Shown here: positions 55,374 to 61,550 of the stretch, piece after piece | Numbering within the stretch: the stretch's first letter is position 1 | How the letters are laid out: every line of letters starts with the position of its first letter | Notes under the pieces: generated by a model | Database searches by the model: none | The model's input: the letters and a program-made list of their open reading frames with translations, nothing else | What the model was told of the DNA's origin: nothing | NCBI RefSeq assembly: GCF_003334765.1 | Contig: NZ_QOWT01000013.1 | Reading direction: 5' to 3' (one strand) | From: Escherichia coli | Lineage (GTDB): Bacteria > Pseudomonadota > Gammaproteobacteria > Enterobacterales > Enterobacteriaceae | Length of the DNA stretch: 64,000 nt | Program-made: the position numbers and the translations under genes

Positions 55374-55654
55374 ATGTTTTCGGCACATTTCTCCCCAGAG
55401 TGTTATAATTGCGGTCGCAGAGTTGGTTACGCTCATTACCCCGCTGCCGATAAGGAATTTTTCGCGTCAGGTAACGCCCATCGTTTATCTCACCGCTCCC
55501 TTATACGTTGCGCTTTTGGTGCGGCTTAGCCGTGTGTTTTCGGAGTAATGTGCCGAACCTGTTTGTTGCGATTTAGCGCGCAAATCTTTACTTATTTACA
55601 GAACTTCGGCATTATCTTGCCGGTTCAAATTACGGTAGTGATACCCCAGAGGAT

Positions 55655-55876
<222 letters not shown>

Positions 55877-55914
55877 TTGTTTTACCGCCTGATGGGCGAA
55901 GAGAAAGAACGAGT

Positions 55915-55947
55915 AAAAGGTCGGTTTAACCGGCCTTTTTATTTTGT
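55915..55947 (+). terminator. Intrinsic terminator of infA
   Basis: Hairpin AAGGTCGG-TTT-AACCGGCCTT followed by TTTATTTT. Confidence 0.75.
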
Positions 55948-56057
55948 GATATGTATGAAGTACTTTGGAAGTATAAGTCCGTAACTTGTCTCGATGTAGA
56001 TATACTGCACAACTTGTTTACAGTATGAGCAAACAATAATTATCATTAAAATTCTTC

Positions 56058-56086
56058 TTGACCGTTTTACTCCAACTCCCTATAGT
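56058..56086 (+). promoter_or_regulatory. Sigma70 promoter of the tRNA-Ser gene
   Basis: -35 TTGACC (56058-56063), 17-bp spacer, -10 TATAGT (56081-56086), then a GC-rich discriminator (GCGCCCCG) typical of stringently controlled stable-RNA promoters. Confidence 0.7.
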
Positions 56087-56129
56087 AGCGCCCCGTTGCC
56101 ACCCATGAGGTTTGGTAGCAAAACAATTT

Positions 56130-56217
56130 GGTGAGGTGTCCGAGTGGCTGAAGGAGCACGCCTGGAAAGTGTGTATACGGCAACGTATCGGGGGTTCGAA
56201 TCCCCCCCTCACCGCCA
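56130..56217 (+). tRNA. serW: tRNA-Ser (anticodon GGA)
   Basis: 88-nt sequence GGTGAGGTGTCCGAGTGGCTGAAGGAGCACGCCTGGAAAGTGTG...GGTTCGAATCCCCCCCTCACCGCCA: acceptor stem, long variable arm, T-loop GGTTCGAATCC and encoded CCA; anticodon loop CUGGAAA. Confidence 0.95.
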
Positions 56218-56367
56218 GATTATAAGCGTATATTATTGTTTGACATGCGCTTTTTTATTCTCCCTTCCAGACAGTATGCCACCGGGTATGCCATCTGAAA
56301 CCGGTTTATATAAGCCGCGATCACATCTTATCGGACTATTTCCGATCTTTGAGCATACCGGGCAAAG

Positions 56368-57213
56368 CTATACTGCCAGCATGCCAGGATAGTGTCTGGC
56401 AATAATATCATTAAGCCTGTCAACCAGTTCTGGTTTTCTGAACGTGATATGCGCGGAGCCCTTCTTAAAGTATCTGATGCTGAACATCTCATCTTCATAG
56501 CACGCTTTACCCTGAACAGACCGGATATGGTCATCCAGATGAATGATGATATTTTCCCGGTTGTCGGGGACTGGTTTGCCACTGAACAGATGCAGCATTC
56601 TTTCCAGGTCGGCAAGTCGGTCGGTCTGTTGTCCGCTGTTCAGATGAATCCCCCACCGGTCCCACCTCACCAGATTGTTGACGATAATTTTACTGCCAAA
56701 TTTACAGGGTGAGTTGGTTTTGTAATTCCAGCTCAGCACTCTGAAGACGTTGATCACTCCTCGCTCAAACACGTCATCCTTATTCTGGTGCAGTTGCTCA
56801 AATGTGCTCCAAATGTTCGCTTCACTGATTTCCGGAAAGTTATCGTACTCCAGTGAGCGGTACCATGTATCACGGGCCTGCGCATCCATTAATGACAGCA
56901 TCCCGGAACGTTGCATCAGGTCACGCCAGATTTCGCGATCGAGATTGCGGGTGATGGCTTTCATTGCGGTTTCCGGTTTCTCCATGAGCCAGCAGCCGCA
57001 GCGAAAATCCTGTTTCATGGCCCAGTCCCGGGCGGTTTTACCGCCAATGCTTTCCGTCAGTACCGAGATTTCAGCCAGTTGCCGGATAAGTGTGTCGATT
57101 TGCAGCAGCGCACTCTTTCGTACAGCCAGAATGTGGCGGATACTGGTTGAGCAGATAACGTCCGTATGTCCGTTGACCAGTTCCGGGCGGGAGATTGTGA
57201 TATCTGACATCAT
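56368..57213 (-). CDS. Island-encoded hypothetical protein, resembling DUF4942-family proteins found at the toxin-proximal end of CP4-type islands
   Basis: 281-aa ORF with protein-like composition. Family assignment is from memory of annotations, not from a search. Confidence 0.65.
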   Translation of the reverse strand: MMSDITISRPELVNGHTDVICSTSIRHILAVRKSALLQIDTLIRQLAEISVLTESIGGKTARDWAMKQDFRCGCWLMEKPETAMKAITRNLDREIWRDLMQRSGMLSLMDAQARDTWYRSLEYDNFPEISEANIWSTFEQLHQNKDDVFERGVINVFRVLSWNYKTNSPCKFGSKIIVNNLVRWDRWGIHLNSGQQTDRLADLERMLHLFSGKPVPDNRENIIIHLDDHIRSVQGKACYEDEMFSIRYFKKGSAHITFRKPELVDRLNDIIARHYPGMLAV

Positions 57214-57294
57214 CGTTTTTCCTTTTGGTTTATAAACGAAAACGCCAGCCGTATTCAGGCTGGCGTCAGTGGAATGAAGTCTGGTGAGTAAGAC

Positions 57295-57492
57295 TCACCT
57301 GTTCTGTTGCAGAAGCTGCTGTTGGCGCAGGGTACGGATATCTTCCCTGGCCTGTTCAATGCAGGGCAGCAGTGCTGCTGAATCCGTTTTATCCTCATCG
57401 GTGTCGAAGATAATCCCTGATTCGCAGTCAATATTGTCCTGCATCCACGCAATCAGAATATCCAGCGCCGTTTCTGTGGTTAATGATTTCAT
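57295..57492 (-). CDS. YeeW-like small protein
   Basis: 65-aa segment MKSLTTETALDILIAWMQDNIDCESGIIFDTDEDKTDSAALLPCIEQAREDIRTLRQQQLLQQNR inside ORF 57295..57723; matches the YeeW-type protein found downstream of CbtA-type toxins. Confidence 0.7.
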   Translation of the reverse strand: MKSLTTETALDILIAWMQDNIDCESGIIFDTDEDKTDSAALLPCIEQAREDIRTLRQQQLLQQNR

Positions 57493-57508
57493 GTTGTGAA
57501 TTTCCGGG

Positions 57509-57760
57509 TTACCAGTCGAAAGTGGGGAACCCCGGCAGACATTCTGCGCCGGCGTCCAGATGAATGAGACTGACGCCATAACGCCGGGTGAGAGTGACGA
57601 CCAGACGACGGAACGTTCTTGACAGGCCCAGGCGTTTAAGCCGCAGAACCGGGTACGACCATGCATCGGTACGTAACAGATACCAGTCGCGGGCTTTTTC
57701 CCGTACGGTGGAGGATAGCTCATGCAGTGTATACACGGTGGTGGTGATAATTCTGCTCAT
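57509..57760 (-). CDS. 83-aa hypothetical protein in the slot where CP4 islands carry the CbeA/CbtA-type antitoxin-toxin pair; weak resemblance to the CbtA/YkfI toxin C-terminus
   Basis: ATG start, TAA stop; contains YLLRTD (compare YALVRTD / YELVRID in CbtA-family toxins); too short for either partner. Confidence 0.4.
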   Translation of the reverse strand: MSRIITTTVYTLHELSSTVREKARDWYLLRTDAWSYPVLRLKRLGLSRTFRRLVVTLTRRYGVSLIHLDAGAECLPGFPTFDW

Positions 57761-57778
57761 CTGAATGCCCTTACTGAC

Positions 57779-58000
57779 TCAGTTCAGGGTGACGTTCATC
57801 AGCCGGACATACGGGCCAAAACTGTCCTTACGGCGTTCAGCAAACACGGCCAGCACACCGGGAATATCCTGCACTTCACGACCGGTATACGTCTCAGCAC
57901 TGCCGTGCCAGCGGTACTTACCGGTGCAGAACGGAAATAGACGGGGTGCAGGATGCTGTTGGTGAATACGCATGGCTTCACCACGGGTGATAATTTTCAT
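57779..58000 (-). CDS. DUF987-family protein (YeeT/YpjJ-like)
   Basis: 73-aa ORF MKIITRGEAMRIHQQHPAPRLFPFCTGKYRWHGSAETYTGREVQDIPGVLAVFAERRKDSFGPYVRLMNVTLN. Confidence 0.85.
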   Translation of the reverse strand: MKIITRGEAMRIHQQHPAPRLFPFCTGKYRWHGSAETYTGREVQDIPGVLAVFAERRKDSFGPYVRLMNVTLN

Positions 58001-58062
58001 AATGGGATACCTCTGAAGACAGAAGATAAAAGTGAAAACAGGTGTGATGTGGTTGTGACGGG

Positions 58063-58539
58063 TTAAAGCAGACCATGTTCGGCAAAGGAGAAAACCTGGT
58101 TGCCACCGACTATCAGATGGTCCGGCACCCGGATATCCACCAGGCCCAGTGCCTGTACCAGACGTTCGGTGATAAGCCGGTCTGCCTTACTGGGTGTGAC
58201 TTCACCGGACGGGTGATTGTGTGCCAGTACCACGGCAGCGGCATTGTGGTACAGGGCGCGTTTAATCACTTCCCGGGGATGGACTTCCGTGCGGTTGATG
58301 GTGCCGGTGAAGAGGGTTTCACCGGCAATCAGCTGATTCTGGTTGTTCAGATACAGCACCCGGAATTCTTCACGCTCCAGTCCCGCCATGTTCAGAATCA
58401 GCCATTCCCGTGCTGCACGGGTGGAGGTGAAGGCCACGCCGGGTTCATGAAGATGGCGGTCCAGGGTTTTCAGGGCCCGTTGAATGAGGCTGCGCTCGCC
58501 GGGCGTCATCTCTCCGGGCAGAAAGGAAAGTTGTTGCAT
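58063..58539 (-). CDS. RadC-like JAB/MPN-domain protein (YeeS/YfjY/YkfG-like)
   Basis: ORF 58063..58554; probable start MQQLSFLPGEMTPGERSLIQRAL...; JAMM motif HNHPSGEVTPSKAD. Confidence 0.88.
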   Translation of the reverse strand: MQQLSFLPGEMTPGERSLIQRALKTLDRHLHEPGVAFTSTRAAREWLILNMAGLEREEFRVLYLNNQNQLIAGETLFTGTINRTEVHPREVIKRALYHNAAAVVLAHNHPSGEVTPSKADRLITERLVQALGLVDIRVPDHLIVGGNQVFSFAEHGLL

Positions 58540-58554
58540 TGTCCCTGCCTCCAT

Positions 58555-59028
58555 TCAGTCGATGATGCGCATAATGGCGCTGCATTCCGGATGCTGCAGG
58601 GCGTAATCCCGCAGCCGGTAATAATGAACCGTCATGGCATAATTCTCTGTACGACAGGCGTGATGGCTGTACGCCATCAGACAGGCGGCAATGCCGGCGG
58701 CTTCCGGGCTCATTTCAGCGCGGTTACCGTTCATGACGTTAAACAGCACCCATGTTTCGTCATCATCGTCATCCGGTTCGGGTGCCATAAATGCGCCACC
58801 GTTGTTCAGGGTGTACAGATTCCAGATACCACCGCAGTAGTCTTCGCACAGACGGTCCATCCAGCCGAAGACACGGGGCTCCAGGGTCACCCACTGTGGA
58901 ATGAGGCCAAAGTGCTGCGGCCAGAAGCTGATGCGCTGTTCATCAGGGACGAGGGTGGCAACCAGTTGTTGCAGGTCAGTCTCCGGTGCACAGGCCGAAG
59001 AGGTGGTGTTCTGAGACAATGTTTTCAT
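58555..59028 (-). CDS. Antirestriction protein (YfjX/YafX/KlcA-like)
   Basis: 157-aa segment starting MKTLSQNTTSSACAPETDLQQLVATLVPDEQRISFWPQHFGLIPQWVTLEP... inside ORF 58555..59409; the upstream in-frame extension is not supported by homology. Confidence 0.85.
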   Translation of the reverse strand: MKTLSQNTTSSACAPETDLQQLVATLVPDEQRISFWPQHFGLIPQWVTLEPRVFGWMDRLCEDYCGGIWNLYTLNNGGAFMAPEPDDDDDETWVLFNVMNGNRAEMSPEAAGIAACLMAYSHHACRTENYAMTVHYYRLRDYALQHPECSAIMRIID

Positions 59029-59369
59029 GTATGAAATCCTTGTAATGTGAATAAATGAGAGGGAGTAAAGGTCGGGAGCTGGCAACATCACGTTCATCAC
59101 TGACCGTGATGACCCGGTAATATCAGGGATGAATGATATTCGGCTGAAATTCCGGACAGCCGTACGCGTAACCGTTCCGGTCACAGACGGATGGCCAGAT
59201 GCCATTGCCTGTATACTCAGTCTGCACAGACTGATTTCTCCGGGACGGTAAAACAGACGGGTACACCAGGCGCACAGGTCATCATCAGAAATGGAACGAC
59301 ACCCCGGCAGCGCCTCCGGGGCGTCGGGTGATTCTGGTGCCTGAATCACGCCTTCAGGGACATGCTGCA

Positions 59370-60188
59370 TCAGCGCAGGCTCTCCAGCAGCATTTCTGCC
59401 ATTACCCACAATGCGCGGTTGAGCTTAATATCGGTGTCGATGTTGTGAATGGCACGGGTGTGGATACGTTTTCCTTTTGCACTGCGGCCGGAAATCCCGC
59501 CTTTCAGCATATTCTCCTGGATGGTCTGATAAGTACTCCACAGGTCCTTACCGTAATCCTCCCGGCGTCGTGGCGTCAGAATGTCGGCGGTGGTGACGGG
59601 CCGATGTTCGTCACCATAACGGTAAGTCAGTGCCGCCTGTGCCAGCTCCTGGCGTTCCGGTGGCGGCAGGACCAGCGACTGCATGGCATCACGCTTCTCC
59701 TCTATCCGGTCAAACACGCCCACCACCTCGTAAGCCCCTTCGATAACTTTCTCCACTACATTTCCCCGGTGTGGAACACGCACTTCCCCCAGAGACTGGC
59801 CACAGACGCACCCGTTCTGGCAGACGAACCTGAAGTAACCCGGCAGCATCTGGTAGCTGGAGGTACCGTCATGAGAGTTGAGCAGAATAATTTCAGGGAC
59901 ATGTTCTCCGTTTATCTCTCCGGCCCGCCGCAGACGCAGCATGTGTTTTGTGTATCCCCGGCGGCCCGGGTCGCGCACGCGGGTCTGGCAGGCGAAGAAT
60001 GGCTGAAAACCTTCCTGCTGCAGGCTTTCCAGTACGGTGATGGTGGGAATGTACGCATATCGTTTACTGCGGGAAGTATGCCGGTCTTCACCGAAAATAC
60101 TGGGAACATAGTGCATCAGTTCTTCGTGTGTCAGCGGACGGTCACGGCGTATCTGGTTCGTATAACCAAAACGACTGGCTAGTCGCAT
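59370..60188 (-). CDS. DUF932-family protein (YfjQ/YafZ-like)
   Basis: 272-aa ORF MRLASRFGYTNQIRRDRPLTHEELMHYVPSIFGEDRHTSRSKRYAYIPT... Confidence 0.8.
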   Translation of the reverse strand: MRLASRFGYTNQIRRDRPLTHEELMHYVPSIFGEDRHTSRSKRYAYIPTITVLESLQQEGFQPFFACQTRVRDPGRRGYTKHMLRLRRAGEINGEHVPEIILLNSHDGTSSYQMLPGYFRFVCQNGCVCGQSLGEVRVPHRGNVVEKVIEGAYEVVGVFDRIEEKRDAMQSLVLPPPERQELAQAALTYRYGDEHRPVTTADILTPRRREDYGKDLWSTYQTIQENMLKGGISGRSAKGKRIHTRAIHNIDTDIKLNRALWVMAEMLLESLR

Positions 60189-60305
60189 AATTTGCTCCTT
60201 ATCGGTGGTTAAGATTTACTGGTGTAATAAATGAAAAAGCCACGTCTCCCGGAGAAGACGCGGCCTGACAGATGAAATGAATGACGTTTATTGTCTGAGA
60301 AGCCC

Positions 60306-60530
60306 TTAACTGGCGAGCCGCGTATTAAGCTGTGTTCCGGTATCGGGCTCAAAATTCCGGCAGCACCAGCGCAACTGACCTCCAGCATTACGGATAACCA
60401 GCCGGAAATGTGTTCCCAGGTCATCTTCCGTAAACACATTGCTGTAAGTTGTTGTGACGGCAACCACCTGTTCGCATGAGAAAGGGCCTTCGGGAAATAA
60501 GAGTAATGTACAGCCCTCATGTATTTTCAC
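60306..60530 (-). CDS. Hypothetical small protein (74 aa, GTG start)
   Basis: Only protein-like ORF in the 60189-60625 gap; no clear Shine-Dalgarno; overlapped by a 103-aa ORF in another frame with less protein-like composition. Confidence 0.3.
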
Positions 60531-60625
60531 CTGAAAATAAAAGTCGCTGTAATCATGGCAGGGCCGTATTTATTTTTGATATTAATAAATTAATAACGCG
60601 AAAATGAACCGCATAACTTACTCCT

Positions 60626-61108
60626 TTAATTTGTTTTGTTTACGTAGTCCTTGACCAGGTACGCGAATTCGTGAACGCCAATTTCACCAAACCAAATCAG
60701 GTAACCAGGGTCGATGTTGTAATAGTAACCAACGACTTTATGTGTTTTTGGGTTATAGAGTGTTATGATAAAGTTCCACCCGCAAGCGTGAGCTTTACAA
60801 CCACCACCTTCTACCCAGGTCGTTCCGTTAATGTTTACAGGATATGCACCACCGCCAGGACCATCCATATAGCCGTCTTTACCGAACATCCCGTCCAGTC
60901 CGACGGGATTTAGTGTTTTGTCGATAGCTACTCTGTAGGTAGCGTCACCTTCGTATAACTCGTACGTTGTTGGACATGCACCAGGCTGGCCAGACCAGGC
61001 TTTTGAGTCGCATTTAAGGGTCTGATTTACAGTGGCGGCGTTTGTGTCAGGACTTACACCAATAAACAGGAAAACCAGAAAGAACATCAGAGTATGTAAA
61101 CGTTTCAT
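60626..61108 (-). CDS. Exported Ivy-family-like protein (putative lysozyme-inhibitor paralog)
   Basis: 160-aa ORF with signal peptide (MKRLHTLMFFLVFLFIGVSPDTNA), good RBS (AAGAAGGAA) upstream, and a CKAHACG motif aligning with the Ivy CKPHDCG loop; downstream segment ...KTHKVVGYYYNID resembles Ivy ...KSNQMTGLFSTID. Confidence 0.6.
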   Translation of the reverse strand: MKRLHTLMFFLVFLFIGVSPDTNAATVNQTLKCDSKAWSGQPGACPTTYELYEGDATYRVAIDKTLNPVGLDGMFGKDGYMDGPGGGAYPVNINGTTWVEGGGCKAHACGWNFIITLYNPKTHKVVGYYYNIDPGYLIWFGEIGVHEFAYLVKDYVNKTN

Positions 61109-61550
61109 TATAAATTCCTTCTTAGGTTATTTAGCACTGCGATTTAAAGTAATACGGCCGATTAACTCAGTGCTATGAAAGAAGTCCACAGCGGTATAAT
61201 TACCGACCGCTAATGGATATTGCCGGACATTACCTTCGCTTGCCCACAGACAATATCATTGAGTCGTTGATAAACATACGTGTCGGGATCGGCAATAATC
61301 AGCCCTGCACAATTGTCATCATGCATTAAACGATAAATTTCCAATTTACTGAAATTTCGCATTAGTTCAGGGACTTCATCAGGATTGATAATGGATGAAT
61401 ATAGAGCCGGGTTGTAATAGTGAATATCCGGCTCGCCGAAAGTATAAGTGTGCTGATACCAACAATACAGACAATAGCGATGGTATAAAGTATCAAGTGC
61501 TTTTTAAAATAGACTGGAAACCAGATCCCCCTTTTTACTTACCTGTGTTA

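Follow-up and report, generated by a model that had tools for sequence, protein, structure and literature searches.

The integrase-free tRNA side of a CP4-like island at Escherichia coli serW most probably reflects native polarity

The closest described counterparts of the locus analyzed here are the genomic islands OI-43 and OI-48 of Escherichia coli O157:H7 EDL933. Both islands carry a putative P4-family integrase and a cryptic ser'W or ser'X at the clpA/ycdU end, and intact serW/infA or serX/ycdW at the end opposite to the integrase (Bielaszewska et al., 2011; PMC3064760). They are flanked by perfect 14-bp repeats (TGGCGGTGAGGGGG) that are identical to the repeats of the Shigella SRL island, and their integrase gene and the SRL integrase gene share 99% identity (PMC3064760). 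OI-43 and OI-48 excise via these repeats at about 2e-3 and 2e-4, and O157 derivatives are found that have lost large internal parts of OI-43/48, one of which lost clpA too (PMC3064760). The insertion site of the SRL island is serX, with serW described only as a strongly suspected alternative (PMC7545054).

We analyzed a 64-kb stretch of DNA (the window, 64,000 nucleotides) from contig NZ_QOWT01000013.1 of assembly GCA_003334765.1. ARAGORN identified one tRNA gene within the window, an intact tRNA-Ser(GGA) at 56130-56217 on the plus strand that matches K-12 serW to its final base. The upstream neighbors are trxB, cydD, cydC, aat, and infA, which identifies the gene as serW. The chromosomal backbone around serW is that of E. 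coli, and the core chromosome of the source strain is 99.956% identical to that of strain SW071611 across 20.5 kb. The final 14,631 nt of the window match the end of this draft contig exactly, and the contig stops at window base 64000, inside a YeeP-like GTPase gene whose sequence is repeated among CP4-like islands.

A three-way alignment of the empty K-12 serW-clpA site (attB), the window (attL), and the integrase-side junction of a relative (attR) defines the point of insertion. The window follows K-12 attB without a difference as far as the sequence ending in CCCCCCTCACCGCCA and departs from it at 56218, where it enters island DNA. The integrase-side junction of the relative is unrelated until the 14-mer and is thereafter identical to K-12 downstream of serW. 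This pattern is as expected for a crossover inside a 14-bp core and constitutes a clean att site. The core, CCCCCTCACCGCCA, is the final 14 nt of serW (56204-56217, plus strand), occurs as a single copy in the 64-kb window, and is the same repeat as in OI-43/48 and the SRL island (PMC3064760). The island is thus inserted exactly at the serW 3' end, with the crossover within CCCCCTCACCGCCA and with serW on the attL side. A consensus terminator scan of 56218-56262 returned no new serW terminator supplied by the island after the core.

All genes directly after serW lie on the minus strand, and the DUF4942 gene comes first, in place of the integrase that lies directly 3' of the intact tRNA or tmRNA in the canonical P4/CP4-57 layout. 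A tblastn search with two alleles of the serW/serX-island integrase found no tyrosine recombinase in the 64-kb window (best E = 0.8).

The DUF4942 gene (56368-57213) is intact, reads toward the tRNA as the last gene of the island, and matches Pfam DUF4942 (E = 2.5e-68, positions 1-189 of the 190-position model); its 280/281-aa product occurs widely in E. coli as the identical, intact protein. It is separated from the DUF957 gene by a terminator-like minus-strand hairpin at 57241-57267 (10 pairs, seven of them G-C, followed by a T run; consensus scan only), and this strong hairpin suggests that DUF4942 may be transcribed separately. The YeeW-like/DUF957 gene (57295-57492) encodes 65 aa, 64 of which are identical to a protein annotated by PGAP as 'DUF957 domain-containing protein' in strain LSN03-016011/A. 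The longer, 142-aa ORF that contains it (57295-57723) has no Pfam match and, as described below, is the by-product of a deletion. An NCBIfam scan of the DUF proteins of the window gave no matches.

Further inward, also on the minus strand, lie a C-terminal remnant of DUF5983 (57509-57682; identified by blastn, with Pfam DUF5983 recorded for its 83-aa product), a DUF987 (YeeT-like) gene (57779-58000; precomputed Pfam PF06174 on an identical gene), a RadC/JAB (YeeS-like) gene (58063-58539; Pfam RadC, and NCBIfam TIGR00608 with 149 bits, above the cut-off), a KlcA/ArdB-like antirestriction gene (58555-59028; Pfam PF03230 on an identical gene), a DUF932 gene (59370-60188; Pfam PF06067), and a DUF905 gene (60306-60524; Pfam PF06006). 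Two small ORFs separate the DUF905 gene from a C-terminal fragment of a patatin-like phospholipase (62228-62701; blastn against LSN03-016011/A and cluster names). This is followed by an N-terminal Ag43/Cah fragment with an ESPR signal peptide and the first repeats (62655-63176; blastn, Pfam ESPR/AIDA) and by the C-terminal part of the YeeP-like GTPase, cut by the end of the window and contig (63548-64000). The CP4-like backbone YeeP-Ag43-DUF932-antirestriction-RadC-DUF987-YeeU/CbtA-DUF5983-DUF957-DUF4942 is found here in order and with 98.6-99.1% identity to the serX island of LSN03-016011/A, and the only backbone modules absent from the window are those taken by two deletions (cbtA, yeeU, most of DUF5983, and the patatin-to-Ag43 block).

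These deletions were defined by blastn against the sister serX island of LSN03-016011/A (NZ_CP035884.1) and its annotation. The first, at 57681/57682, where the DUF5983 remnant ends, accounts for 1,761 bp relative to the LSN03-016011/A island and removed most of DUF5983, the cbtA toxin, the yeeU/cbeA antitoxin, and most of a pseudogene, producing fusion ORFs at 57295-57723 and 57509-57760. The second, at 62679, accounts for 6,374 bp and removed most of patatin, rdcB, a dynamin-like gene, and most of Ag43, fusing the patatin C-terminal fragment to the Ag43 N-terminal fragment. In both deletions, the overlap at the breakpoint is just 1-2 nt. None of the complete RefSeq E. coli genomes carries the exact island of the window, no record covering at least 80% of 55600-64000, and the deletion-1 junction was intact in none of the records searched. 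An earlier note on this DNA had reported that no integrase lies beside the tRNA and that DUF4942 and then a YeeW-like gene occupy this position, which ARAGORN, Pfam, and tblastn bear out with exact coordinates. It had also described this side as the toxin/YeeW end of the island: the YeeW-like end does adjoin serW, but the 1,761-bp deletion has taken cbtA, and the 'toxin end' of this island is now without a toxin.

A different kind of change affects the DUF932 gene. Over 16.7 kb, the only differences between the window and Escherichia sp. 4_1_40B are 11 substitutions within 133 bp of DUF932 (59742-59874). The exact DUF932 protein of the window was found on one contig only, and the substitution patch is unique to GCA_003334765.1. 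The patch has the look of a tract converted from a paralogous copy of the island, or of paralogs collapsed in the draft assembly.

We asked where the integrase lies in related islands by inspecting four relatives, two of them end to end and two at the tRNA-proximal part alone. In the ~90-kb serW island of NZ_CM136163.1, which was read end to end, DUF4942 adjoins serW, and a 400-aa tyrosine recombinase that reads inward is the final gene before clpA, with the 14-mer located between int and clpA. The ~45-kb serX island of LSN03-016011/A, the closest to that of the window, has the order ghrA, serX, DUF4942 ... int, ycdU, again with the integrase at the far end and reading inward. In SW071611 at serW and in an O26:H11 strain at serX, DUF4942 likewise adjoins the intact tRNA in the tRNA-proximal part read. 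A P4-family integrase is present in every relative whose integrase end was read, and a second copy of the core (attR) marks the far boundary in relatives. Junction anatomy, polarity, and the position of integrase and core could be read directly, attL in the window and the rest in these relatives.

This arrangement is common. A search of 5,426 complete E. coli genomes gave 262 with the infA-serW-DUF4942 junction (at least 80% coverage) and, as a separate count, 224 with the clpA-core-int junction, such that this form of the clpA-int junction may be missing from some serW islands. We inspected the exact 400-aa integrase in 10 different genomic contexts, in all of which the core reads TGGCGGTGAGGGGG on the int strand, 160 bp upstream of the ATG, and in none of which a tRNA gene lies within 3 kb of the integrase. 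Its domains (Arm-DNA-bind_3, Phage_int_M, and Phage_integrase) and its 34% full-length identity with K-12 IntA assign the protein by sequence to the P4 family.

In some strains, the chromosomal side of attR holds a 179-bp unit, matched by Rfam RtT, in two or three tandem copies (L050 2424-2840; L043 23785-24160; L045, L047, and L053). Each unit starts with tRNA 3'-end sequence, and the 14-bp core therefore occurs two or three times upstream of the integrase. The clpA-serW intergenic region, the location of the E. coli type I-F CRISPR locus, contains a single match to Rfam CRISPR-DR4 (L055 354-381 in K-12; L050 2339-2366).

The geometry of core and integrase suggests how the island polarity would arise. 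A P4-family tyrosine integrase would recombine the 14-bp attP core with its exact counterpart, the 3'-terminal 14 nt of serW or serX. The excised form would have the core just ahead of int, a placement shared with P4-type elements, but in antisense orientation to int, and in this family at a distance of ~160 bp. Integration would join the int side of attP to the chromosome downstream of the tRNA, giving attR beside clpA, while the other side of attP, with its DUF4942/DUF957/CbtA-type genes, would join the intact tRNA to give attL. Since the asymmetric core would fix the orientation of insertion, the DUF4942/toxin end is predicted to be tRNA-proximal in every insertion by this integrase. The catalytic steps of the proposed integration are those established for tyrosine recombinases.

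Sequence from Escherichia sp. 4_1_40B extends the view of this island beyond the window. This strain provides the nearest longer sequence, with both deletion scars and with the clustered DUF932 substitutions as the only differences, and we traced its island by exact-protein matches to 36 kb beyond the tRNA. After YeeP come two small genes, an HTH gene, hsdM-hsdS-darT-darG-hsdR, a YgjP-like gene, and an IS21 copy, followed by iutA-iucDCBA, shiF, an IS3 copy, and PerC-region genes known from EHEC islands. No integrase or second core copy was found in these 36 kb, and the YgjP-IS21-iutA junction was present in no record searched. Within the type I restriction-modification operon, the darT-darG toxin-antitoxin pair sits between hsdS and hsdR (L011 5558-14182). 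The IS21 copy includes a 695-aa ORF that joins the IS21 transposase (rve, Mu-transposase C) and IstB domains in one frame (L011 15473-17560); this ORF lies between the hsd/YgjP block and the aerobactin operon, at a mosaic junction of the island.

The island with both deletions occupies serW in 4_1_40B and serX in GCA_028864005.1, the two copies being 99.99% identical over 20.5 kb, and a second deletion variant of the island likewise occurs at both serW and serX. To judge from these sequences, the occurrence of the same variants at both genes suggests that the island moved recently and site-specifically, which would require a functional integrase in its lineage. Recent integrase-mediated insertion into the two identical tRNA genes would produce just this picture, an indirect argument that int and attR are probably still at the island's far end in the source strain itself. 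There is perhaps an even chance that the island keeps hopping between the identical tRNA-Ser(GGA) genes, or between strains, after having lost the CbtA/CbeA module. If so, this module would be dispensable for both island maintenance and mobility.

Taken together, the window very probably contains the tRNA-proximal (attL) end of a CP4-like island of the SRL-PAI/OI-43/OI-48 (SpLE1) family at the serW 3' end, with the integrase-free tRNA side representing native polarity and no rearrangement. The earlier note had read the layout as a sign of rearrangement or decay, and it is true that int immediately follows the tRNA or tmRNA gene in many P4-family islands, CP4-57 at ssrA among them. Derivation of this island by inversion or other rearrangement from an ancestral form with a tRNA-side integrase is nevertheless extremely unlikely. 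The attL junction is a clean core crossover without extra sequence, the same polarity recurs in hundreds of genomes and at two tRNA genes, and the core keeps its antisense orientation and fixed 160-bp distance from int in 10/10 contexts. Inversion of a whole island between direct repeats is, moreover, not a product of tyrosine recombinases, and the layout with DUF4942 next to the tRNA has been published as normal (PMC3064760). The clean att crossover, shared polarity, fixed core-int geometry, and published layout led us to reject inversion or rearrangement. For this integrase family, the tRNA-distal position is native, the polarity being set by which way the att core points with respect to int. 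The decay that the earlier note suspected is real, in the form of the two deletions, but has no bearing on the integrase position, and the layout itself is native to an integrase family represented in hundreds of genomes.

Nor does the mosaic structure of the 4_1_40B island, whose right part resembles the LSN03 serX island, whose left part resembles the aerobactin island of O26/O103 strains, and whose two parts meet near the IS21 copy, make it anything but very unlikely that the tRNA-proximal module is a separate integrase-less element in tandem before a second, integrase-owning island. Such stacking is contradicted by the lack of an internal 14-bp core in the window or in the 36 kb read further in 4_1_40B, and by the YeeP-to-DUF4942 modules forming one continuous unit with int in complete relatives; we rejected it on both grounds. 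Unlikely, though to be taken more seriously, is that the polarity is native and that a deletion has taken the integrase/attR end in this strain and left the rest immobile at serW. The island has undergone at least two deletions, a sign of erosion that makes further loss elsewhere conceivable, O157 derivatives have suffered large OI-43/48 losses, one including clpA (PMC3064760), serW-DUF4942 genomes outnumber clpA-int genomes (262 vs 224), and the visible sequence of the source strain ends with the contig at 64000, short of the far end. Against such a loss, the identical deleted island at serW and serX is most simply explained by recent integrase-mediated integration, and int is kept in 2/2 relatives followed to the far end. 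The integrase, which the earlier note had placed either beyond the window or among lost genes, is thus at the far end in all relatives whose int end was read and in the literature (PMC3064760), and for the source strain itself its presence there is the probable case.

The native polarity favored here has already been published for this well-described family of islands. An integrase next to the tRNA, the premise from which the earlier note proceeded, is a rule of thumb that is not universal for P4-family islands; it holds for one class only, and CP4-6 and OI-43/48 have the opposite arrangement. Island finders or readers that expect a tRNA-side integrase would wrongly flag serW/serX islands as degraded or rearranged.

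Comparison with known systems places the island closest to OI-43/48, the tellurite-resistance/adherence island (SpLE1) of O157:H7 strains EDL933 and Sakai. Both use the serW (OI-43) or serX (OI-48) 3' end with the same 14-bp repeat, and both have the backbone YeeP, Ag43/Cah, DUF932, antirestriction, RadC, and DUF987 through to DUF4942. The cargo differs, with ter, ure, and iha in OI-43/48 versus hsdMSR with darTG and the aerobactin operon in the 4_1_40B proxy, in which no ter, ure, or iha occurs in the part read. Unlike OI-43/48, the window island also has deletions of the cbtA/cbeA pair and of the patatin-rdcB-dynamin-Ag43 block. The Shigella SRL island has the same 14-bp flanking repeats (PMC3064760) but carries resistance genes and fec, none of which were seen here; its gene-level polarity is taken here from secondary sources only.

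The two K-12 islands illustrate both sides of this comparison. CP4-6, at thrW, has the same polarity as the window island, with the ykfI toxin end after thrW and intF at the far end, reading inward. Its order from the tRNA (toxin, antitoxin, DUF987, RadC, antirestriction, DUF905, then DUF932 and a GTPase) is also that of the window family; its tRNA differs, and IntF is essentially unrelated to the serW/serX integrase. CP4-57 has the opposite polarity, with intA directly after ssrA and the toxin end distal; together with satellite phage P4 it represents the canonical layout, and both have a P4-family integrase and backbone modules in common with the serW/serX islands. K-12 itself thus holds both polarities, that of CP4-6 and that of CP4-57.
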